DNA from: a virus | Lineage: Duplodnaviria > Heunggongvirae > Uroviricota > Caudoviricetes | DNA length: 64,000 bases | Virus record (IMG/VR): IMGVR_UViG_3300029543_000174 | Span: 50,821-114,820 of that record | Reading direction: 5' to 3' (one strand) | Part shown: one piece after another, positions 8,066-56,364 of the stretch | How positions within the stretch are numbered: the first letter of the stretch is position 1 | Layout of the letters: each line of letters opens with the position of its first letter | The notes under the pieces: generated by a model | Told to the model about the DNA's origin: nothing | What the model saw: the letters and a program-made list of their open reading frames with translations, nothing else | Databases searched by the model: none | Program-made: the position numbers and the translations under genes

Positions 8066-8084
8066 TTGCGTGATATATATAGTG
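8066..8084 (+). promoter_or_regulatory. short-form promoter-like core TTGCGTGATATATATAGTG
   Basis: Same core as the other 14 copies. Lies directly upstream of the GC-rich island. Confidence 0.4.
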
Positions 8085-12817: not shown

Positions 12818-13279
12818 ATGATAGATATGTTATTTAAAGGAAAGACAACTGATACAAAAAGATGGATATATGGTTCTCTTGTTGTAGCAATCGTACATCA
12901 ATGTAAACATTATTATATTACTTCCGGCAGAACCAATATTAATGACGGTAATATTGATTTTGAAAAATTTGAGGTTATTCCTGAAACTGTAAGTCAGTTT
13001 ACCGGTAAATATATTAATAACACTCGAATCTTTGATGGAGACATTTTAGAGTGGTGTGATGATAGTTGGGGAATCACAAATACTGCTGTAACAAGGACTG
13101 TTGTATCTTGGGATGAAAATGACTGTTGTTGGGTTTTAAAACATGACGGTAAGGACGAATGCATTTGCACATTCACTGAATATGATAAATCTGAGTGGGA
13201 AAATATGAATTTAATCGGAAATATTTATGATAACCCGGAATTGTTATTGGATTATAACAAACAGGTTACTACCGTTTAA
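12818..13279 (+). CDS. YopX-family protein
   Basis: C-terminal IGNIYDNPELL hallmark and an internal IPETV...TGKYI...IFDGDIL motif. Paralog of 13507..14010. Confidence 0.65.
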   Translation: MIDMLFKGKTTDTKRWIYGSLVVAIVHQCKHYYITSGRTNINDGNIDFEKFEVIPETVSQFTGKYINNTRIFDGDILEWCDDSWGITNTAVTRTVVSWDENDCCWVLKHDGKDECICTFTEYDKSEWENMNLIGNIYDNPELLLDYNKQVTTV

Positions 13280-45987: not shown

Positions 45988-46152
45988 ATGGAAAAAAATG
46001 AAATTATTGAACAAATCGAAAAAATGTCGGATAAACAAAAGGCTAAGGTTTTAAGTATAGTTTTGGATGAATATCAACATTCAAACTCTAATGATGATTT
46101 TGGTCAAAAAGCTGCTGCCGCATTTGAATCGGCTGTAAGATGGTTACTCTAA
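45988..46152 (+). CDS. small hypothetical protein
   Basis: ATG with an AAGGAGA RBS. Confidence 0.35.
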   Translation: MEKNEIIEQIEKMSDKQKAKVLSIVLDEYQHSNSNDDFGQKAAAAFESAVRWLL

Positions 46153-46221
46153 TATAGCTTTGAGGGCAGTAATTTATATTACTGCCTTTTTTATTGTTTT
46201 TTTCTTCATTCTGCGAACTTT

Positions 46222-46277
46222 TTGCGAATATTGACGATTTTTTCAAATTTTTCTGAAATATTTGCGATTATATAATG
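46222..46277 (+). promoter_or_regulatory. copy of recurrent promoter-like motif
   Basis: TTGCGA-N17-AAATTTTTCTGAAATATTTGCGATTATATAATG. Confidence 0.5.
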
Positions 46278-46293
46278 TAAGGAGAAAAAAGCA

Positions 46294-46479
46294 ATGGGAT
46301 CAAGCTTTAATAAGTTCAAAATTGTTGATAAAGAAACAACAATAGTTTACACACAAGATGTAAATGGAAACATCAATGGTAAATTCTATATTGATACTGA
46401 AGATTTGTCAAAAGTCCTTATGGGGTTATTGCCAAGGTTGTGCTCCTCCAAACTGCCTGAAATTGTTAATGTTTTGTAA
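46294..46479 (+). CDS. small hypothetical protein
   Basis: AAGGAGAAAAAA RBS. Confidence 0.35.
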   Translation: MGSSFNKFKIVDKETTIVYTQDVNGNINGKFYIDTEDLSKVLMGLLPRLCSSKLPEIVNVL

Positions 46480-46530
46480 ACACTGAGAAAAATCACAAAT
46501 TTTTTTGAAATATTCGCGATTTATATAATG
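46474..46530 (+). promoter_or_regulatory. copy of recurrent promoter-like motif (upstream of TnpB-like gene)
   Basis: TTGTAA-N17-AAATTTTTTTGAAATATTCGCGATTTATATAATG. Confidence 0.5.
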
Positions 46531-46556
46531 TAAGGCGGTAAAAAGGAGGAATTACT

Positions 46557-48353
46557 GTGCCGGAAAAAGAAAAAAAGAATCAATATATTTTATCAATGGG
46601 CTTAGAAATTAATGCTGATGATAAAATTTATCTTGATAAGTATTTTGAATTTGTAAGAAAAATGCAAAATTATTTTATTTCTTATCAGCTAAAAAAATAT
46701 AACAAAATGGTAAGAGAAACAAATTATCAAGAATTAAAAATTCAAATTGATAATATTGATAAAGCTATTTCTAATTTCAACAGACAAATTATAAACCGTC
46801 AAAAAGTTATTGATGAAGGTGAAATATCTAAATGTGAAATCACTTCATACAAGAATGAAATTGCAGAATTGAAAAAAGATATTTCTTCTTTGAAAAAAGA
46901 AAAATCAAAATATCAAAAGCAAATTTATGAACTTTTGAAAGAATACAGGTTTAGTGATTTAAGTTTTAAATCCGATGTAGCTATATTTGACAAAATTGAT
47001 TATTTCACAAAACCTTGTTACAAAACAAAGAATGGTAAGCTTGCAAGAGATAAAAATGGTAACAAAATTCCTATTCTCGATGAAAACGGAAATGTAAAAA
47101 GAAAATGTTTTGTCTCTTCATTAGTGAGAAAATATTCTATTGCTGCACCGATTTGGTCAGCATTTGATAAAAAGTTCAAGGAAAACGGTGCAGTCCATTT
47201 TAAAAGCTTTTTAAATAAAAAATCAGTCAGCTCTATTGCATTCCCAGTTGGTAATTCTTTCAAAGGTAACAATGCTTTTGTTATTCCTTCTGTAGGCAAA
47301 ATAATTAAATATAAAATACCAAGAACCCAATACGAAAAGGAAGTATTTAACAAAGAAAATGTTAATGTTATCCGAATTAAAAGGATTTGGAAGAATACAA
47401 AATACAGCTATTCGGTTCAGTTTACTATAACAGGTGAACCTGTGTTAAGGAAAGACAAAGATAATTGTGTCAAACATCCACTTGGCACTGGTGTAGCAGG
47501 TGTAGGTATAAGTTTAAATGAATGTTGGATTTGCACTGAGAACACATTAAAAAGAGTTTCTTTAGTTCCACCTGATGCTTATGAGTTTGATAATGAAATA
47601 AAACAAATTGAAAGAGCAATGGATAGAAGTAAGCGTGCTACTAATCCAAATAATTTTGATGAAAAGGGTAGGGCAAAGAGCTTTTACGAAACGCCTGACC
47701 CTGATAACCCAGACAAAATCATCAAGTCAAAGCTCCGTTGGAGATTTTCAAAGCATTACAGAAAACTAAGTCAAAGAAAAGCTTATTTGGAAGGTATTAA
47801 TGCCAGAAAGCGTAAGCTTTATGACGAAAACCTTGTGAATGAATTATTGCTGTATTTCAATGAAATCAATATTCAAAAGAATGATTTCAAGAGAACTCAA
47901 ATGAGTAAACAAAAAGTCGGTGACAGCGCCGATGAAAAGAAAAAGGCTGGTTTACATATTAAAGAAGCATCACCTTCACAGTTCGTTGAAATTCTTAAAA
48001 GAAAAGTCATCAGCCACGGTGGTAAAGTAAATATCATTACTAAAAAGGAATGTCAAGCAACAGAATTCAATCATATAGACGGTAAGTTCTATGATATGCC
48101 TGTTTCTAACAGGTGGTTTGGTATGAGTGATGGTAATGTTCTTCAAAGAGATGCTCATACGGCTTTTAATCTATTGACACTTAATGATATAGAAAAAAGC
48201 AACAAACTTTATGATGACTTTTTAAAACAACATTCTGCCGAACTTGAAAAGTTTAATGTTGTTGCACCTGAACAGGTAAATATGGTTACTTGCAGTCAGG
48301 CAAAAGAAAAAAGAAAGTCAGCAAGAAAAACAAAAAAGAAAAATATTGCATGA
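46557..48353 (+). CDS. TnpB/Cas12-like RuvC-fold protein (598 aa), RuvC-I Asp apparently replaced by Ser
   Basis: GTG start with an AAGGAGG RBS. Region GTGVAGVGISLNE aligns with the TnpB RuvC-I block (ref. vGIDLG) with S in the D position. KLRWRFSKHYRKLSQRKAYL...LLLYFNEINIQKNDF aligns with the RuvC-II block (ref. vvvEdLnvkgm). SQFVEILKRKVISHGGKVNIITKKECQATEF aligns with the TnpB block FxxLxYKAxxxGxxVxxV with a degenerate zinc finger. QRDAHTAFNLL aligns with RuvC-III (ref. DRDxNAAxNIL). Confidence 0.55.
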   Translation: MPEKEKKNQYILSMGLEINADDKIYLDKYFEFVRKMQNYFISYQLKKYNKMVRETNYQELKIQIDNIDKAISNFNRQIINRQKVIDEGEISKCEITSYKNEIAELKKDISSLKKEKSKYQKQIYELLKEYRFSDLSFKSDVAIFDKIDYFTKPCYKTKNGKLARDKNGNKIPILDENGNVKRKCFVSSLVRKYSIAAPIWSAFDKKFKENGAVHFKSFLNKKSVSSIAFPVGNSFKGNNAFVIPSVGKIIKYKIPRTQYEKEVFNKENVNVIRIKRIWKNTKYSYSVQFTITGEPVLRKDKDNCVKHPLGTGVAGVGISLNECWICTENTLKRVSLVPPDAYEFDNEIKQIERAMDRSKRATNPNNFDEKGRAKSFYETPDPDNPDKIIKSKLRWRFSKHYRKLSQRKAYLEGINARKRKLYDENLVNELLLYFNEINIQKNDFKRTQMSKQKVGDSADEKKKAGLHIKEASPSQFVEILKRKVISHGGKVNIITKKECQATEFNHIDGKFYDMPVSNRWFGMSDGNVLQRDAHTAFNLLTLNDIEKSNKLYDDFLKQHSAELEKFNVVAPEQVNMVTCSQAKEKRKSARKTKKKNIA

Positions 48354-48365
48354 CAGCAATGTTGA

Positions 48366-48516
48366 TATAGGTAGACTTAGCTACCTAAAACTACCGGTAA
48401 ACGCATTTTTGTGTTTGGTAGTAATGAAATAATTAAGGTTAAGCAGTTAGTTGGTTTGCGTTTGTCAGAACTTAATAGAGCTGTTTGACAAGATTATACA
48501 GTGTAATTAATTTGAG
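48366..48516 (+). other. conserved array leader, copy 1 (about 150 bp; contains TTGACA-N17-TAATTT)
   Basis: About 90% identical to 49690..49825 and 50502..50652. Confidence 0.5.
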
Positions 48517-48618
48517 GTTTTGGTACTGTAGTAGATTACACTACTCTAAAAGAAATATATTGGGAGTGTCTGAAAAATCCATGTTTTGGTACTGTAGTAA
48601 ATTACACTACTCTAATTA
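48517..48618 (+). CRISPR. CRISPR-like mini-array 1 (2 repeats of 36 nt, 1 spacer of 30 nt)
   Basis: Repeat GTTTTGGTACTGTAGTA(A/G)ATTACACTACTCTAAAAG. Spacer AAATATATTGGGAGTGTCTGAAAAATCCAT. The second repeat has a degenerate 3' end. A terminator hairpin follows at 48618-48638. Confidence 0.5.
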
Positions 48619-48638
48619 CACCATTTGGTGTGTTTTAT
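48618..48638 (+). terminator. hairpin ACACCATTTGGTGTG followed by TTTTAT
   Basis: Inverted repeat with a T-run after array 1. Confidence 0.5.
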
Positions 48639-48668
48639 ATAAAAAATAATTTAGGAGGAAAAAATATA

Positions 48669-48769
48669 TGTCATTCAATATGGTTATGGTTATTATTTGT
48701 GCTGTAATTCTTGTTGCTTGCATTATTGCTCTTATTGTAAGAGGCATTAAGAGTAAGCGCAATAAGTAA
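48669..48769 (+). CDS. small hydrophobic peptide (33 aa)
   Basis: GGAGGAAAAAA RBS. Sequence MSFNMVMVIICAVILVACIIALIVRGIKSKRNK. Similar in shape to the peptide at 52312. Confidence 0.3.
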
Positions 48770-48824
48770 TTAAGTACAAATACAGCATCCCCGGATACGC
48801 TGATTAAACATTATCCGGGAATGT

Positions 48825-48911
48825 GACAATGTAGTTTAACGGTAAAACACAAAAGTTGTTTTTTTGATCCTCCTTCGACTTTTGGATGTAAGTTCAAATC
48901 TTACCATTGCC
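48825..48911 (+). tRNA. atypical tRNA-like gene (possible anticodon UGU; 21-nt variable arm; one acceptor-stem mismatch)
   Basis: Canonical T arm (GTAAG-TTCAAAT-CTTAC) and D arm (GTTT-AACGGTA-AAAC) by eye. The anticodon loop is ambiguous because of a T7 run. Confidence 0.3.
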
Positions 48912-48921
48912 AATAAGATAT

Positions 48922-49007
48922 GCTGATGTGATGGAATGGCAGACAGAAGAGACTTAAAATCTCTTGGTGGAAACATCGTGTGAGTTCGACTCTCACCATC
49001 AGCACCA
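48922..49007 (+). tRNA. tRNA-Leu (UAA), type II with long variable arm, CCA encoded
   Basis: Acceptor GCTGATG/CATCAGC. Anticodon stem AGAGA/TCTCT with loop CTTAAAA. T arm GTGAG-TTCGACT-CTCAC. Confidence 0.7.
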
Positions 49008-49355
49008 CTGCAGGGCCCAAGTGAAAGGTCTAAGAAGTTTCACAACGGTATAAGATATTTCTTGGCTGGTTTTTGCCGTGTGCTGGAATGCACTGAATCA
49101 ATAACCTTACAGACAGTATCAAAAAAGTTAGGACTTTTTGTATTGGAAGGGTTGCTGACCTTTCCGTAGTTTTTCTAATGATTTAAAGGAAGTTAAGCAA
49201 AAGTGTACATATTACTTTACTGAATTTAATCACCGTATTAACACGCTGATAGACAGTATTTCTCCCACAATTCGGGAAGTAAAGAGATCTATTGGTTGAA
49301 AGTAAATGGATACGGCAGAACAGTGCACATCTGCCGTATCACGATTATTAAATAC

Positions 49356-49430
49356 GCAGATATGATGTAATCGGTAGCATACAACTCTTCCACAGTTGGT
49401 GTGCGAGTTCAAACCTCGTTATCTGCTCCA
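49356..49430 (+). tRNA. tRNA-Gly (UCC), CCA encoded
   Basis: Acceptor GCAGATA/TATCTGC. Anticodon stem CAACT/AGTTG with loop CTTCCAC. T arm GCGAG-TTCAAAC-CTCGT. Confidence 0.75.
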
Positions 49431-49436
49431 AAATAT

Positions 49437-49512
49437 TCTCCATTAGTTCAGAAGGTAGAACGGTAGACTGTTAATCTATATGTCATTGGTTCAAATCCAA
49501 TATGGAGAGCCA
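49437..49512 (+). tRNA. tRNA-Asn (GUU), CCA encoded
   Basis: Acceptor TCTCCAT/ATGGAGA. D arm GTTC-AGAAGGTA-GAAC. Anticodon loop CTGTTAA. T arm ATTGG-TTCAAAT-CCAAT. Confidence 0.8.
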
Positions 49513-49515
49513 AAC

Positions 49516-49591
49516 GGACCGTTAGCTTAGTAGGTAAAGCAACCGGCTCATAACCGGTAAACCATGGGTTCAAATCCTATACGGTCCACCA
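49516..49591 (+). tRNA. tRNA-Met (CAU) (elongator-type; Ile2/lysidine alternative not excluded)
   Basis: Acceptor GGACCGT/ACGGTCC with 1-72 paired. D arm GCTT-AGTAGGTA-AAGC. Anticodon stem ACCGG/CCGGT with loop CTCATAA. Confidence 0.8.
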
Positions 49592-49594
49592 TAT

Positions 49595-49670
49595 GTGTCA
49601 TTAGCTCAGTAGGTAGAGCAACAGACTTTTAATTTGCAGGTCAAGGGTTCAATTCCCTTATGACACACCA
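49595..49670 (+). tRNA. tRNA-Lys (UUU), CCA encoded
   Basis: Acceptor GTGTCAT/ATGACAC. D arm GCTC-AGTAGGTA-GAGC. Anticodon loop CTTTTAA, with one A-C mismatch in the anticodon stem. T arm AAGGG-TTCAATT-CCCTT. Confidence 0.7.
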
Positions 49671-49689
49671 CTTAATAGGGCTGAATTAG

Positions 49690-49825
49690 CAGCCTGATGC
49701 TACTGGTAAACACATTTTTGTGTTTGGTAGTAATGAAATAATCAAGGTTAAGCAGTTAGTTGGTTTGCATTTGTCAGAACTCAATAGAGCTGCTTAACAA
49801 GATTATATAGTGTAATTAATTTGAG
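49690..49825 (+). other. conserved array leader, copy 2
   Basis: About 90% identical to leader copies 1 and 3. Confidence 0.5.
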
Positions 49826-49993
49826 GTTTTTGTACTGTAGTAAATTACACTACTCTAAAAGCGCCGCAGAATTGCTTCCACGGTGGTCTTTGTTTTGGTA
49901 CTGTAGTAAATTACACTACTCTAAAAGGACAGCTACAGTTTTAGGCACGGTTTTCTTGTTTTTGTACTGTAGTAAATTACACTACTCTTAACG
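49826..49993 (+). CRISPR. CRISPR-like mini-array 2 (3 repeats of 36 nt, 2 spacers of 30 nt)
   Basis: Repeats GTTTTTGTACTGTAGTAAATTACACTACTCTAAAAG, then the GTTTTGG variant, then a degenerate terminal repeat ending CTTAACG. Spacers CGCCGCAGAATTGCTTCCACGGTGGTCTTT and GACAGCTACAGTTTTAGGCACGGTTTTCTT. Confidence 0.55.
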
Positions 49994-50056
49994 TTGTTTG
50001 TTTTGAGAAATGCAAGACAAAGAGTAGTAAATTTCATTTAAAAGAGGAAAAAATAA

Positions 50057-50497
50057 ATGCATTTAGATACAGCAGTAATATTTTTTATTGGTGTTCCTGT
50101 ATATTTGCTAATGGCATTATTATCAAGAAAATTTGCGTATGTTGAAGCATCAATTGGATTGCTAATATGTTCAATTGTTAGCCTATTTACAGAAAACACA
50201 GGAATAATTTGTTTGGTGATATATTTTGGACCATTCATTGTTTCAGCTATTATGAAACCAATAGAAAATAGGATAAATAAAAAGAAACAAGAAAAAGAAT
50301 TGCATAAATTTGCGGATATGCAAAAAGGAAAGGTGGGTGTTATCCATGAATTAGAAGATGGCAACTTATATTTATTCCTCTCAGGTAGATATTGGCAAAT
50401 ATCCGAACAGTCGAGAATTAAATATAATTGTGAGGAACAAGATGCCGTTAAGGTATTAGATATTAATACAGATAGACTTATCGTTAAGCCTATTTAG
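50057..50497 (+). CDS. NfeD-like membrane protein (short form)
   Basis: N-terminal TM segments. The C-terminus GKVGVIHELEDGNLYLFLSGRYWQISEQ...AVKVLDINTDRLIVKP fits the NfeD OB-fold pattern (ref. G.G.v..G..W.A.s...i..G..V.V....L.V.P). Confidence 0.5.
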   Translation: MHLDTAVIFFIGVPVYLLMALLSRKFAYVEASIGLLICSIVSLFTENTGIICLVIYFGPFIVSAIMKPIENRINKKKQEKELHKFADMQKGKVGVIHELEDGNLYLFLSGRYWQISEQSRIKYNCEEQDAVKVLDINTDRLIVKPI

Positions 50498-50501
50498 TAT
50501 A

Positions 50502-50652
50502 TATGGGTAGACTTAGCTACCTGAAACTACCGGTAAACGCATTTTTGCGCTTGGTAGTAATGAAATAATCGAGATTAAGCAGTTAGTTGGTTTGCATTCG
50601 TCAGAACTTAATAGAGCTGTTTGATAAGATTATGTAGTCGTAATAATTTGAG
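50502..50652 (+). other. conserved array leader, copy 3
   Basis: About 90% identical to leader copies 1 and 2. Confidence 0.5.
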
Positions 50653-50818
50653 GTTTTAGAACCATATATAACTACACTACTCTAAAAGTACCGAAGAAGA
50701 ACGAAGCGGTGCATAAAAGTTTTAGAACCATATATAACTACACTACTCTAAAAGGTCTGAGATAGTTGCAACAATAAAAAACTTTGGAACTGTATTATAT
50801 TACACTATTTTTTAAAAA
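50653..50818 (+). CRISPR. CRISPR-like mini-array 3 (2 clean repeats plus 1 degenerate; spacers of about 30 nt)
   Basis: Repeat variant GTTTTAGAACCATATATAACTACACTACTCTAAAAG appears twice. Spacer TACCGAAGAAGAACGAAGCGGTGCATAAAA. The third unit is degenerate (TGGAACTGTATTATATTACACTATTTTTT). Confidence 0.5.
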
Positions 50819-51240: not shown

Positions 51241-52191
51241 ATGAGTTTAGCTAAGAAAGTATTATCGGTTGGTATTGCTTCTATTATGGCAATGTCAGCT
51301 ATTGGAGTTGGCACTACTGCACTTGCCGAACCAATTAATTCTGTTCAGTCGGCTACTTCAATTTCACTAAATGAGAGTAAAACTGTAACCTTGAAATATG
51401 GTGATATTGGTAATTATGATGACATCTCGGAAGATACTGTTTACTATAAGTTTACTGCTCCGACCACTAATTATTATGAATTTACCTTAACAGGTTACAA
51501 GACAAGAATTGATAATAATGACCCAAGTGCTTATATTGATATAACAGATGAATATGGCGTCAATGCATCGTCAAGTGGGGGCTTATTTAATCCGTATTTT
51601 AATGATGTAAAATCAATTGCCTATTTGGAACAAGGAAAGTCATATATAATCAATGTCTTTTACTCACCAATTGGTACTCAAGAGTACAATTCAAAGGACT
51701 ATGCCGAAACAGCAATTACACTAACTGTTTCTCCACATACACATGACATTACAAGTGTCGTTAATGACGGATATACAGACTACACCTGCAAGCGTTGCAA
51801 TTATTCATATACCGAATTTAAACCGTTACCGACATCTCCTTCACAGCCTACACAGGCTCCTACAAGCACTGTTACTCCAATAACAGCAAGTAAGGTATCA
51901 AAGCCAAAAAAGACTAAAATTAAAAAGGTAAAGGCTGCTAAGAAGGCATTGGCAGTTACTTGGAATAAAGTATCCGGCGTAAAAGGTTATCAAGTACAGG
52001 CTGCAACAGACAAAAAGTTCAAAAAGAACAAGAAAACTGTTACAATCAAGAAGCAAAAAACTACTAAGACAACCGTAAAGAAACTTAAAGCTAAGAAAAA
52101 GTATTACGTAAGAGTAAGAACTTACAAGACCATAAATGGAAAAAAGGTTTACTCGGCTTGGTCAAGTGTAAAAAATGTAAAAACTAAATAG
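51241..52191 (+). CDS. secreted protein with shared Lys-rich Fn3-like C-terminal module
   Basis: Signal peptide. The C-terminal ~100 aa are nearly identical to the C-terminus of the 60296 protein. Confidence 0.5.
   Translation: MSLAKKVLSVGIASIMAMSAIGVGTTALAEPINSVQSATSISLNESKTVTLKYGDIGNYDDISEDTVYYKFTAPTTNYYEFTLTGYKTRIDNNDPSAYIDITDEYGVNASSSGGLFNPYFNDVKSIAYLEQGKSYIINVFYSPIGTQEYNSKDYAETAITLTVSPHTHDITSVVNDGYTDYTCKRCNYSYTEFKPLPTSPSQPTQAPTSTVTPITASKVSKPKKTKIKKVKAAKKALAVTWNKVSGVKGYQVQAATDKKFKKNKKTVTIKKQKTTKTTVKKLKAKKKYYVRVRTYKTINGKKVYSAWSSVKNVKTK
51848..52140 (+). repeat. about 290 bp nearly identical to 63724..64000 (shared C-terminal module of two surface-protein genes)
   Basis: Direct comparison of the nucleotide strings gives about 93% identity. 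Confidence 0.7.
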
Positions 52192-52269: not shown

Positions 52270-52288
52270 TTGCGCGATATATATATTG
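52270..52288 (+). promoter_or_regulatory. short-form promoter-like core TTGCGCGATATATATATTG
   Basis: First of four tandem copies in 52.2-52.7 kb. Followed by a strong RBS and a 34-aa peptide gene. Confidence 0.5.
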
Positions 52289-53212: not shown

Positions 53213-54508
53213 ATGGGAATTTTTAGTAAGAAAAATAATGATTTAGAGAATATAGAAAATACAGAAATCGTTACTCTGATAGAAGAAAAGAAAGAGAAAA
53301 CGGAATCTCAGATTATAAATGAGATGCAAAAGGATTATTTATCTAAAAGAGAAAATCTTGGCGATTGGGATTTAGAGCCTAAAGATTTCGGACCGGTATG
53401 GAGTTATGTTGCAGATGAAAATGTCACAGATATTAACTTGAATATGGACGGTCACGATTTGTGGATTACTGATTTAAACAAGGGTAAATATCGAGTTGAA
53501 CCGGAAACATTTAAACAAAAATGTGATGAATGGTTAGAAACACAGGATGCACTTGAATTTGGAAATACAGAGCAGCAGGATTCAAACAGTTTATTTGTAA
53601 AGCAATTCGTACACAGAGTTGGTAATAAGCAAAGTAGGCAATTTAATAAACAAAAACCGTTACTTGAAGCAGAAACAGGAAATCTTCGTATATCGTGCGT
53701 TCATTCATCTGCGGCAGTATCTGGTATATCAATATGTATAAGAAAAACACCACCTGTAATGAGAATTACACCTAAAAAAGCGTTAGAGCAAAAATATTTT
53801 ACAGAAGATATTTTGTGTTTGCTAACCAATTGCGTTAAGGCAAAAATGAATTTTGTCTTTTGCGGTGAACCGGGTGTAGGTAAAACAGAATGTGCAAAAT
53901 TCTTTTCCCAATTTATTAATGCTGAGGATAGAGTTATTACAATCGAAGATAACCCTGAATTACACTACAGAGAAATTAATCCCGGCAAGGATTGTGTTGA
54001 ATTGAAAGTATTTGAGCCTATGTTTACATACAGTACAGCTATTAAGGCTTGCCTTCGTCAAAACCCTCAATGGATTATGCTTTCTGAGGCACGTTCAACA
54101 GAAGTTAAATATCTTCTTGAATGTTGGTCAACCGGTGTATCAGGTTTTACTACACTTCATACTGATGATGTAAGAAAAATTCCGGACCGTATCCAAAACA
54201 TGATGGGAGATAGCAGAGATGCCGAAAGACTTGAAAATGATATTTTTTCTTTCGTAAATATTGGAATACTACTTCGTAAAAAGAAGGATGAAAACGGCAA
54301 TACATATCGTTATATTGATCAAGTTTGCTTTTTTGATAGAAGTAATGGTAAAAACAATATTGTGATGATGGTTGAAAACGGACAAATGATTAACAACAAT
54401 GGAGAAAAACCAAAAATTCCTGACTATATTTTAAAGCGGTTAAGCTTTGTGGATATAACTGATCCTTATTCGGGATTAAACGAAATTTTGAAGGGAGAAA
54501 AAGATTAA
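53213..54508 (+). CDS. CpaF/TadA (VirB11-family) secretion ATPase
   Basis: Walker A CGEPGVGKTE, RQNPQWIMLSEAR (ref. RxxPDxIxvGEiR), and a His box TLHTDD. Confidence 0.7.
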   Translation: MGIFSKKNNDLENIENTEIVTLIEEKKEKTESQIINEMQKDYLSKRENLGDWDLEPKDFGPVWSYVADENVTDINLNMDGHDLWITDLNKGKYRVEPETFKQKCDEWLETQDALEFGNTEQQDSNSLFVKQFVHRVGNKQSRQFNKQKPLLEAETGNLRISCVHSSAAVSGISICIRKTPPVMRITPKKALEQKYFTEDILCLLTNCVKAKMNFVFCGEPGVGKTECAKFFSQFINAEDRVITIEDNPELHYREINPGKDCVELKVFEPMFTYSTAIKACLRQNPQWIMLSEARSTEVKYLLECWSTGVSGFTTLHTDDVRKIPDRIQNMMGDSRDAERLENDIFSFVNIGILLRKKKDENGNTYRYIDQVCFFDRSNGKNNIVMMVENGQMINNNGEKPKIPDYILKRLSFVDITDPYSGLNEILKGEKD

Positions 54509-56364
54509 TGGATAAACGTGAAAAAATCGAAAAGAAAAAGGAACGTCTTGAAACTAAAATCAAAGATTGTGATGACCAAATTGCAGAAATCGAAAAAGCA
54601 AAAGCTTTAAAAGCAAAAATCGAAAAGATGAAACAAGAGGAACGTCTTGAAAAAGCCGAACAGAAAAAATTAAAGCAACTGCAAAGAGAATATGCAAGAG
54701 AGCAGGATAAAATCCGTAAGAAGAACGAACAAATTGCTCAAAAGAATAAAGTTGTTGAAAAACGTGAAGCTGAAAAAGAAACAAAGGCTAAAAAAGATTT
54801 CAACAAAAGAGAAAAGTATCTTAAATACGGTGTTGATCCTAATATAAAAACATTACCAAAAAAGAAAAAAGTAAATGTTTTTAAAATGCTTGATTACAAT
54901 CAATTGCAGATGGAAGTAAATAAATACGGATATCATTATTCGTTTAAGAAAATTCTTATGCATTACCTTATTGCAGTTATTCTTGCTGTTGCAGTCGGTA
55001 TGGTGTTTAAACTCAAATTCTATCTTATCGGAGTTATTGTCCTTGCCGCAATTATCTTTACGCCGTCAATAATTCTTACTTCTGTAAAAGGAATGTATGA
55101 AGGTAAACGATTTTATGACGTAGCAAATTATATTGAAACTCTCTTATATTCTTTCAGACGTAAGGAAAAAATCCTTGATGCACTTGAAGATACATATACG
55201 TCATATAAAAAAGACAAAGGCAAAATGGGTGACTGTATTGCAAAGGCAATAAATCATATTAAATTTTCCAACTCTGTCGGTGATGTTTCAAAAGAAGCTT
55301 TATCAATCATTGAGGATGAATATGAACATAATGAAAGAATGGTTAATGTTCACAACTTCCTTATTGCTGTTGAAAATAATGGTGGTGATGTTCGTAGACC
55401 GGTTGATTTACTTCTTAAAGAAAGAAATATGTGGGATGAAAGAAACCATTCGTTCCAGAAAGAAAAGACAACTGTAAGAAGAAATATTGCTATTTCAATT
55501 ATATGCTCAGTTGGACTTTGTGTATTCCTTCTTTATATCCTCGGAACAGGACAAATGGCTGAACTTGATATTATTCACAATAATCTTGTTCAAATTACAT
55601 CAACCGTTGCAATTATTGCAAGTATGGCTATGTATGTAATGGCTATAAACAAATTATCTCAGAGCTGGTTGGCTAAAAATACTAAATACAGTGATTATCA
55701 GGTATTAAGAAACTACTTTAATGCAAAAGATTTTGACTTCGTTTCTGAAATGAAATCAAGCTTATTGTTTTCCGTAATTGGTGTATTACTAATTGTCCTT
55801 GGTATTTCAAGAGGAATTAAAGTTACGATTATTCTCGGTGCTGCACTGACAATTTTCTTTATTTGTGCACCTCTTATTGCTCATTCAACAGCAAAGAAAG
55901 TAACAAACAAAGAAATTACAAAAGCGTTCCCTGAATGGCTTATGAACGTTGCACTTCTTATGCAACAAGATAATGTTCAGGTGGCTATTGCTAAGAGTGT
56001 TAATACTGCACCTGCAGTATTAAGACCTGATCTTACAAAACTTGTTAAAGATTTCTACAAAGAGCCTAACAGTATTAAGCCATACCAAAACTTTTTATCG
56101 GATTTTGACTTTCCTGAAATTCAGGGTGCTATGTGTATGCTTTATTCAATAACCGAAACAGGTGACGATGCCGGTGGAGAGCAAATTAACGACCTTATTG
56201 ATAAACAAAATATTCTTATGGATAAGGCAGAAAGAACGGCAAATGAAGATACCATAGCAAGCTATTCGGCATATCAAATGATGCCTATGCTTATATGTAT
56301 ATTCAAAGCTCTCCTTGATATGACAGTCCTTGTAATGGGATTGATGTCATATATGAATAATTAA
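54508..56364 (+). CDS. large polytopic membrane protein, putative TadB/TadC-like platform (618 aa)
   Basis: ATGG-coupled to the ATPase gene. Lys/Glu-rich coiled-coil N-terminus followed by multiple TM segments. Confidence 0.45.
   Translation: MDKREKIEKKKERLETKIKDCDDQIAEIEKAKALKAKIEKMKQEERLEKAEQKKLKQLQREYAREQDKIRKKNEQIAQKNKVVEKREAEKETKAKKDFNKREKYLKYGVDPNIKTLPKKKKVNVFKMLDYNQLQMEVNKYGYHYSFKKILMHYLIAVILAVAVGMVFKLKFYLIGVIVLAAIIFTPSIILTSVKGMYEGKRFYDVANYIETLLYSFRRKEKILDALEDTYTSYKKDKGKMGDCIAKAINHIKFSNSVGDVSKEALSIIEDEYEHNERMVNVHNFLIAVENNGGDVRRPVDLLLKERNMWDERNHSFQKEKTTVRRNIAISIICSVGLCVFLLYILGTGQMAELDIIHNNLVQITSTVAIIASMAMYVMAINKLSQSWLAKNTKYSDYQVLRNYFNAKDFDFVSEMKSSLLFSVIGVLLIVLGISRGIKVTIILGAALTIFFICAPLIAHSTAKKVTNKEITKAFPEWLMNVALLMQQDNVQVAIAKSVNTAPAVLRPDLTKLVKDFYKEPNSIKPYQNFLSDFDFPEIQGAMCMLYSITETGDDAGGEQINDLIDKQNILMDKAERTANEDTIASYSAYQMMPMLICIFKALLDMTVLVMGLMSYMNN

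Follow-up and report, generated by a model that had tools for sequence, protein, structure and literature searches.

Which effector do the short arrays of this phage-like element serve? The window examined here is the whole 64,000-nt stretch at positions 50,821-114,820 of IMG/VR virus record IMGVR_UViG_3300029543_000174, part of a ~190-kb gut phage-like element (related elements are 170-198 kb and whole genomes ~195 kb). It carries three units in which a conserved upstream region of ~145 nt is followed by 36-nt repeats and 30-nt spacers in CRISPR format, next to a gene for a 598-aa TnpB/Cas12-like protein. An earlier reading made from the letters alone (herein referred to as the sequence-only reading) had left two options, a type II-A machinery borrowed from the host or service to the adjacent protein. 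Of the two, the adjacent TnpB/Cas12-like protein is better supported than a borrowed Cas9: a second clade of such proteins shares the layout, the conservation within the repeat has type V polarity, and the window holds no Cas9-style anti-repeat. We consider it probable, with a good measure of doubt, that the locus is a nuclease-dead type V-like (TranC/TldR-like) system on a phage-like element, whose guides direct binding to, and silencing of, competitors.

Three Arrays With Conserved Repeats and Changing Spacers

All three units lie on the + strand (48366-48618, 49677-49993 and 50501-50816; table 1). The arrays stand where the sequence-only reading had placed them, except that we end array 3 at 50816; their period is 66 nt (for array 2 recovered by TRF as well), and the degenerate last repeat that had been described is seen in every one. 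Pairwise identity among the upstream regions is 87-91%, in agreement with the ~90% conservation claimed earlier, and an nhmmer search finds exactly three copies in the window. The claim that the spacers are richer in GC than the element holds for some of them: GC contents are 0.30, 0.57, 0.43, 0.43 and 0.31 against 0.31 for the window, so that spacers reach 0.57 while others stay at 0.30-0.31.

Six further contigs were retrieved by protein and repeat pattern, two from IMG/VR (168,962 and 192,275 bp), three from metagenomes (198,492, 197,780 and 10,865 bp) and one from the European Nucleotide Archive (ENA; 33,649 bp), and all six have the effector gene and the three units at the same places. 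Repeats and upstream regions are conserved among the seven elements but spacers are not, ~18 distinct spacers being present within flanks that are at least 97% identical, with a spacer length kept at 29-30 nt. The sequence-only reading had named invariance of the spacers between related elements as grounds for giving up the arrays; variation is what the related elements display. Since six other contigs have the same units, with repeats conserved and spacers changed, these are genuine CRISPR-type arrays with variable spacers, beyond what chance would yield.

The changes are unevenly placed. The array 1 spacer is replaced in L005, L040 and L041, and the array 3 spacer nearest the upstream region (window 50689-50718) differs in every related element, whereas the trailer spacer of the same array, GTCTGAGATAGTTGCAACAATAAAAA, is identical in the window, L004, L005, L037, L041 and L042 (all six readable copies; that of L040 is unresolved). 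Leader-proximal change combined with a fixed trailer is the polarity expected of Cas1-Cas2-type acquisition. Two spacers of different elements overlap by 11 nt on opposite strands and were therefore both taken from one target locus.

Two irregularities were seen among the related contigs. Array 1 of L037 (11484-11513) and of L041 (7376-7405) ends in an intact repeat followed by GTTTAAAAAGGTTAATAGTAATATACTCCG without a closing repeat; this tail is identical at 20 of 26 positions to an array 2 spacer of L005 (L005 11306-11335), and homologous targets are possible. In the 5,865-bp ENA contig L038 (3880-4050), a TnpB-like open reading frame (ORF) is joined in frame to the 3' end of fn3 (gene at window 51241-52191), the three units and the tRNAs being gone; this fusion is either a natural deletion variant or a misassembly.

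A Predicted RNA Scaffold Upstream of Each Array

The upstream region had been described as a leader with a TTGACA-N17-TAATTT promoter-like pair. That pair is exact in unit 1 only, with TTAACA in unit 2 and TTGATA in unit 3, and as a sigma-70 promoter it is weak and lacks conservation (three of six positions in the second hexamer agree with TATAAT, and the pair is absent from the consensus scan list); its bases fall within conserved RNA stems. Across 12 distinct unit copies, aligned without internal gaps, the RNAalifold consensus has 52 pairs in seven helices, and standard pairs occupy 99.5% of cells (3 of 624 are unpaired) versus 26-47% when the partners are slid by 1-3 columns. Three pairs are compensatory, with both sides changed (UA/CG, AU/UA and GC/AU); 13 further pairs vary on one side, 11 of which stay paired in every sequence, and G-U is the majority pair at 12 positions. 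Folding energies are -47 to -59 kcal/mol for the forward strand and -32 to -41 kcal/mol for the reverse complement, and the structure would therefore belong to a + strand transcript. From this alignment and its folding, the "leader" is predicted to be a folded + strand RNA scaffold, resembling a tracrRNA (trans-activating CRISPR RNA) or omegaRNA, beyond any promoter-bearing leader.

The last ~25 nt of the scaffold can pair with repeat positions ~17-28 at -9 to -11 kcal/mol, so that the spacer and the final 9-10 nt of the repeat stay free. Rfam holds no family for the scaffold even at E <=1, and nhmmer gave no link from it to the sister-clade scaffolds described below. We also considered the repeat as a copy of the 3' end of an IS605 omegaRNA; the only common feature is TAGAACC at a similar distance from the guide, which is a lead and not a finding.

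A TnpB/Cas12-Like Protein With a Decayed RuvC Site

The 598-aa protein has no match in Pfam, NCBIfam or PADLOC. By phmmer it finds IS200/IS605 TnpB family proteins at 25-29% identity, one of which adjoins a Y1 transposase, and its family profile matches the solved chain 9j09 (deposited as "Transposase", elsewhere given as an RdCas12n complex) with an E-value of 7.7e-7 and LaTranC with one of 0.011. An AF2/AlphaFold model with a predicted local distance difference test score of 80.9 was matched by Foldseek, at probabilities of 1.0, to TnpB (8h1j), Cas12m2 (8hhl; query-normalised TM-score, TMq, 0.49), Cas12f, Cas12p, LaTranC and Fanzor2. On this predicted structure the protein is a single effector with a TnpB/Cas12 RuvC fold. 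It belongs to a sparse lineage: among 1.84 billion cluster representatives, a single other cluster exceeds 50% identity, and beyond it relatives reach 35% at most.

In the alignment, most relatives read GxDIG, xxVExM and QRDLYSAF at the three RuvC motifs and keep D/E/D, whereas the protein's own clade reads GVGISLN, INIQKND and LQRDAHTAF. The RuvC D-E-D triad is thus not intact, two of its three catalytic residues being lost, and the D-to-G and E-to-Q changes are conserved within the clade; in the homologues at 55% identity the nearby acidic residues are not conserved (GLGIGLD/ELIVGIN and VNIQKPN/VNIKKPN). Loss of the triad also defines the accepted inactivated subtypes V-K and V-M, so that type V is not excluded by it. 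From these substitutions we expect the protein to be RuvC-inactivated, a putative RNA-guided binder of DNA rather than a cutter.

In related elements a 206-aa HNH_3 homing-endonuclease-like gene lies just upstream of the TnpB-like gene (L001 5284-5904, L037 9284-9904); the window retains at 46152-46557 only a 61-aa remnant ORF of it (46294-46479), a presence/absence polymorphism. An IS200/IS605 insertion, with a Y1 transposase and a TnpB on the opposite strand, breaks up the 55% homologue P0008 in L039 (1597-3371).

Linkage of the Arrays to the Protein in Two Clades

Among the closest relatives there is a second inactivated clade (P0012, P0016, P0018, P0039, P0042, P0046 and P0063), at 26-35% identity, in which the RuvC-I position is Tyr, Phe or Asn, the RuvC-II position is Asn, and the C-terminus with the RuvC-III region is missing. 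All three readable contigs of this clade (L045-L047) have a structured stretch of ~105 nt past the stop codon, whose 3' junction reads ATTTGAC|GTTTTGG in L045 and L047 and ATTTGGG|GTTTCAG in L046. Beyond the junction L047 has 36-nt repeats spaced at 66 and 63 nt, and the L045 and L046 contigs stop inside the first repeat; L045 adjoins a conjugative coupling-protein gene. Adjacency of effector gene and array is thus seen in the seven elements of the first clade and in L045-L047. Two clades at 26-35% identity, on different mobile elements, share a dead gene, a scaffold and an array with repeats of 36 nt and spacers of ~30 nt, and this is our best reason for assigning the arrays to the TnpB-like protein.

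The polarity of repeat conservation reinforces it. The repeat variants in the window are identical in the 5' GTTTT and in the 3' 16 nt and match at 7 of the 15 positions between (differing at 8 of 15). An invariant 3' part accords with a handle of the type V or omegaRNA kind, placed 5' of the guide, and not with a Cas9 CRISPR RNA (crRNA), which suggests that the guide would follow the repeat.

No repeats were found in the contigs of the 55% homologues, L002 and L039. Downstream of P0006 in L002 (2477-2620) there are a consensus TTGACA-N17-TATAAT promoter, two hairpins and a terminator, possibly a small RNA or a 5' leader.

Type II-A Format and the Missing cas Genes

The likeness to type II-A that the sequence-only reading had drawn was borne out. 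An ATTTGAG|GTTTT junction stands in all three units of all related elements, and ATTTGAG/GTTT is the leader-repeat junction of group-1 type II-A systems, whose repeats are 36 nt (PMC5382924); in Streptococcus thermophilus the leader end and one repeat are enough for adaptation (PMC4330368). Of the 36 repeat bases, 22-23 match the S. thermophilus CRISPR1 repeat and 22-25 the reverse complement of the S. pyogenes repeat, with internal-shuffle p values of 0.0003-0.006 over these matches (~0.002-0.004 for variant v1 against S. thermophilus CRISPR1 in forward orientation, ~0.0003 for v3 against the S. pyogenes reverse complement).

The genes that would go with this format were not seen. No ORF in the window exceeds 932 aa, in keeping with the earlier statement that Cas9 is absent. 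The companion statement on Cas1 and Cas2 stands with a reservation: no Cas family is among the strongest Pfam, NCBIfam and PADLOC matches listed for the 71 window ORFs, in lists of 25 families below which a weak Cas2 match may lie. No integrase that could renew the spacers was found in the window or in the fetched parts of the related elements. A tracrRNA anti-repeat, proposed as something to seek, was not found in the window either: neither strand of the window has a complementary run of 16 or more to repeat nt 1-22, and the best matches are at chance level. One candidate at 13044-13060, a 17-nt run that includes G-U pairs, lies inside a YopX coding sequence at about chance level and was set aside.

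The ATTTGAG|GTTTT junction and the 36/30 geometry suggest adaptation by a host II-A Cas1-Cas2-Csn2 complex. That such a complex services these arrays is a hypothesis that we regard as possible but rather doubtful.

Spacer Targets

The first spacer of array 2 (49862-49891) matches 22 unrelated IMG/VR contigs (5.9-74 kb, ~50% GC) at 28 of 30 positions. Both mismatches set a spacer T against a target C; with a crRNA of the + strand they would form rU:dG wobbles. In L029 the protospacer is CGCCGCAGAATTGCTTCCACGGCGGCCTTT, with TTTTTGAC as its 5' flank, and covers a conserved intergenic hairpin; the 5' flank consensus is TTTT(T/A)G(A/G)C. On one side of the site is a gene with weak likeness to sigma factors (Sigma70_r4_2 at E 0.002, which falls short of the Pfam cutoff), on the other a replication-gene module that contains DUF2800 and an Enc34-type single-stranded DNA-binding protein. 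A genome scan for the protospacer returned only two short contigs of metagenome-assembled genomes, one assigned to Oscillospiraceae and one to Bacteroidales.

Comparison with phage and plasmid databases, as the sequence-only reading had proposed for its suggested foreign targets, thus gave a phage family for one spacer, and for the others no significant match. The first nine spacers have no match among the INPHARED phages, and a later batch gave one at chance level (E = 2); PLSDB plasmids gave chance-level matches only (E >=3); exact 22-23-mers of four further spacers occur in IMG/VR only in the elements themselves; and a codon-degenerate pattern for the locus of the two overlapping spacers found no match. 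Elsewhere in the window no spacer has a match at <=7 mismatches, which speaks against self-targeting.

Proposed Mechanism

We hypothesize that each unit is transcribed on the + strand together with an upstream gene or tRNA, as a ~145-nt scaffold fused to a short array. Unit 2 starts 7 nt past tRNA-Lys, and from this spacing tRNA processing could free its 5' end. The scaffold tail would pair with the 3' half of the repeat in the manner of an anti-repeat, so that scaffold and first repeat form a handle like that of a single-guide RNA and the first spacer acts as guide, a natural single guide comparable to a TnpB omegaRNA whose guide is 30 nt; with the unit in triplicate, three or more guides would be supplied at once. 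The RuvC-dead protein would bind matching DNA in other mobile elements and block transcription or replication of the competitor. Interference by binding is established for Cas12m, Cas12c and TldRs (PMC12669027, PMC11013384, 10.1101/2023.11.30.569447).

Spacers might be renewed at the scaffold-proximal repeat by the host type II-A Cas1-Cas2-Csn2 complex. If the scaffold acts mostly in cis, each unit would use its newest spacer alone, which would explain both the very short arrays of 1-2 spacers and the triplication of the whole unit; if it also acts in trans, like a tracrRNA, the downstream spacers would still be usable. A similar logic has been proposed for the omegaRNA arrays of sigma-associated dead TnpBs (PMC10691335). 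Taken furthest, the locus would be a cross-type hybrid, in which a nuclease-dead TnpB effector and omegaRNA scaffold are joined to a II-A-format array and the host Cas1-Cas2-Csn2 unknowingly loads guides for a phage silencer; we offer this version tentatively, with more doubt than conviction.

Alternative Explanations

Two alternatives would turn the arrays toward the host's own Cas9. Viral mini-arrays might exploit a host type II-A Cas9 and tracrRNA against competitors, with repeats that mimic the host's and a TnpB-like gene that has nothing to do with them. The junction, the geometry and the similarity to both streptococcal repeats (PMC5382924) are what this would produce, viral mini-arrays of 1-2 spacers that work with host Cas proteins are known (PMC11656645), and no cas genes were found among the strongest matches listed for the window. 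We nevertheless give this account little credence. The dead clade at 26-35% identity repeats the gene-scaffold-array layout on other elements; the 5' half of the repeat, which a Cas9 crRNA keeps, is here the variable part and the 3' 16 nt the invariant one; the last repeat base is G, not C; the window has no anti-repeat to repeat nt 1-22; and a covarying scaffold goes unexplained. If the repeat-bearing transcripts were instead an RNA anti-CRISPR decoy that soaks up the host II-A Cas9 or adaptation proteins, then changing spacers, spacer lengths tightly held at 29-30 nt, a conserved 145-nt fold and a linked TnpB-like gene would all be needless, and we think a decoy highly improbable.

The remaining alternatives accept the link to the protein and differ over what it does. 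An active TranC or V-U-type type V nuclease that cleaves competitor DNA, its RuvC site rearranged rather than dead, is unlikely in our view, even though Asp532 of RuvC-III is kept, TnpB clades with relocated catalytic residues are documented (PMC10691335) and the closest solved relatives are nucleases: the Glu 4 residues past the lost Asp and the Asp 3 residues past the lost Glu are both unconserved in the 55% homologues, and the related clade is also without the C-terminal RuvC-III region. A TldR-like regulator, whose guides repress host genes or the element's own and remodel host physiology instead of fighting competitors, has precedent in nuclease-dead TnpB derivatives of prophages that are RNA-guided repressors (10.1101/2023.11.30.569447; PMC13418256), and the 17 of ~18 spacers with no identified target leave room for host targets. 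Such a role is nonetheless improbable, given that spacers are replaced fast between near-identical elements, the opposite of fixed TldR guides, that the one identified target is a foreign phage family, and that no spacer matches the 64-kb window.

Several points weigh against the preferred reading of a nuclease-dead silencer of competitors. The catalytic loss is deduced from an alignment in which identity is 25-30%, and there are known TnpB lineages whose RuvC site is rearranged yet active (PMC10691335). A recognisable target exists for 1 of ~18 spacers, and the target class, the target-adjacent motif and the mode of action all rest on that one case. The covariation is modest, the 12 units being paralogues with 92% mean identity, and a cognate specificity of the scaffold tail for its repeat variant was dropped since the pairing energies of cognate and non-cognate combinations do not clearly discriminate. 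The 55% homologue P0006 in L002 has no array within 2.2 kb. The II-A adaptation route, for its part, is at odds with a repeat that ends in G rather than the conserved C, with second-clade junctions that read GAC or GGG rather than GAG, and with three available 3' flanks that have no common protospacer adjacent motif.

Comparison With Known Systems

TranC is a close architectural parallel. As described (Jin et al., Cell 2025, via 10.64898/2026.03.27.714800, PMC13565253), TranC effectors likewise belong to the TnpB lineage, close to IS605 TnpBs at 25-35% identity, and go with small arrays of 32-38-nt repeats, a tracr-like RNA derived from omegaRNA or reRNA and no adaptation genes nearby; some of these systems are phage-borne and phage-targeting (10.64898/2026.03.27.714800, PMC13565253). 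TranCs differ in being active nucleases guided by crRNA and reRNA, whereas here two RuvC residues are lost and each of three arrays has its own scaffold joined to it in cis. The sole sequence link is the LaTranC profile E-value of 0.011; the likeness drawn here is one of architecture.

TldRs (10.1101/2023.11.30.569447; 10.64898/2026.09.22.753285) share the TnpB ancestry, the decayed RuvC, the adjacent scaffold RNA and the expectation of action by binding; one TldR clade is phage-encoded, and many TldRs are C-terminally truncated, as is the related clade here. They differ in that their one guide, of ~9-16 nt, is fixed and directed at a host promoter and that a partner gene is conserved with them (fliC, oppF or csrA, none of which neighbours the effector gene here), whereas the present 30-nt spacers turn over in CRISPR arrays and the known target is a foreign phage. 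Cas12m (V-M) and the other RuvC-impaired effectors V-C, V-K, V-O, V-P and Cas12b3 (PMC11013384, PMC12669027) resemble the system in size (~600 aa), carriage by mobile elements and, on the mechanism proposed here, interference by binding, and Cas12m is the best full-length structural match (TMq 0.49-0.50); however, structurally aligned residues are only 7-8% identical, none of the Cas12 models of PADLOC or NCBIfam matches, and Cas12m uses crRNA alone where a covarying scaffold here precedes each array. The omegaRNA arrays of sigma-factor-associated inactivated TnpBs (PMC10691335) also combine an inactivated TnpB/Cas12f derivative with duplication of the whole scaffold-plus-guide unit for several sites, but theirs are single fixed guides with irregular repeats of >60 bp instead of a regular 36/30 array with turnover.

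Viral mini-arrays and the CRISPR loci of huge phages without adaptation genes (PMC11656645) match in their 1-2 spacers, large viral genome and lack of Cas1/Cas2 (here among the strongest matches listed), and their anti-virus spacers have a counterpart in the one spacer with an identified target, except that classical mini-arrays copy host repeats and need host effectors and the present ones are linked to a dedicated effector gene. Group 1 of type II-A, of the S. thermophilus CRISPR1 type (PMC5382924, PMC4330368), provides the counterpart for ATTTGAG followed by GTTT, the 36-nt repeat with 22-23 bases in common, the 30-nt spacers, leader-proximal acquisition and the degenerate terminal repeat, but here no Cas9, Cas1, Cas2 or Csn2 is seen among the strongest matches listed for the window, the window holds no tracrRNA anti-repeat, the repeat ends in G, and the conserved handle is the 3' and not the 5' part of the repeat.

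Around 50 independent captures of arrays by TnpB lineages, the TranC clades, repeated RuvC inactivation in type V, phage mini-arrays and huge-phage CRISPR without adaptation genes are already known (PMC10691335, PMC12669027, PMC11656645, 10.64898/2026.03.27.714800), and the locus is not a new category. What is unusual is that a dead effector occurs together with three copies of a covarying scaffold fused in cis, with spacers that turn over rapidly and no integrase found nearby, and with a junction in II-A format.

Genomic Context

The window mixes phage-like genes (two YopX, DUF1064, thymidine kinase, DnaN, UDG and a RecG-like helicase) with plasmid-like ones (MPTase-PolyVal, LPD11, YodL, PcfJ, DUF2958 and a T2SSE ATPase; 119-649, 53213-56364 and others), along with a sortase and a 932-aa BspA-type leucine-rich repeat protein. 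The element may be a phage-plasmid; IMG/VR lists the related elements as viral, and no close relative was found among GenBank phages.

Three further observations concern the neighbourhood of the units (table 1). The tRNA-Thr(TGT) at 48824-48913 is, at 90 nt, long for a class I tRNA and may carry an insertion or intron. A further small RNA may lie in a 345-nt non-coding gap of the tRNA cluster (49008-49355), which has a terminator-like hairpin at 49144-49166. The motif TTGCGCGATAT, in an A-rich context, has four exact + strand copies at 52270, 52448, 52537 and 52673, in successive intergenic gaps upstream of the T2SSE ATPase operon, and near-copies at 8066 and 39591 (7 matches at <=1 mismatch versus 0.74 expected); it looks like an element-specific promoter or operator.

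Table 1. Features of the effector-array locus, in window coordinates
Feature	Position	Strand	Description
Effector gene	46557-48353	+	598 aa; predicted TnpB/Cas12 fold; RuvC-I Asp replaced by G317, RuvC-II Glu by Q440; D532 kept
Scaffold 1	48366-48516	+	Predicted structured non-coding RNA beginning 13 nt past the effector stop codon; 3' end ATTTGAG; 3' tail predicted to pair with the 3' half of the repeat
Array 1	48517-48618	+	Repeat 48517-48552; spacer 48553-48582; degenerate repeat 48583-48618
Terminator-like hairpin and T run of unit 1	48617-48640	+	Stem 48617-48632; tail TTTTATATAA; closes unit 1
Six tRNA genes	48824-49670	+	Thr, Leu, Gly, Asn, Met and Lys; between units 1 and 2
Scaffold 2	49677-49825	+	Stem 1 has two compensatory changes relative to units 1 and 3
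Array 2	49826-49993	+	Repeats 49826-49861, 49892-49927 and 49958-49993 (the last degenerate); spacers 49862-49891 and 49928-49957
Scaffold 3	50501-50652	+	Variant tail GTAGTCGTAAT, matching the variant repeat
Array 3	50653-50816	+	Variant repeat GTTTTAGAACCATATATAACTACACTACTCTAAAAG twice (50653-50688, 50719-50754); spacer 50689-50718; 26-nt trailer spacer 50755-50780
Last repeat of array 3	50781-50816	+	Strongly degenerate

Implications

The transition from TnpB omegaRNA to CRISPR has so far been reconstructed mostly from nuclease-active TranC systems. In the present locus the scaffold has remained joined to the guide and the guide position is now a renewable array, carried on a mobile element together with an effector that lacks nuclease residues. 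If interference by binding alone is true, the protein would be a natural, compact (598 aa), reprogrammable agent of the CRISPR interference (CRISPRi) type at work in phage-phage conflict; and if adaptation by the host II-A machinery is true, the memory machinery of one CRISPR type would be parasitised to arm a different, element-encoded effector.

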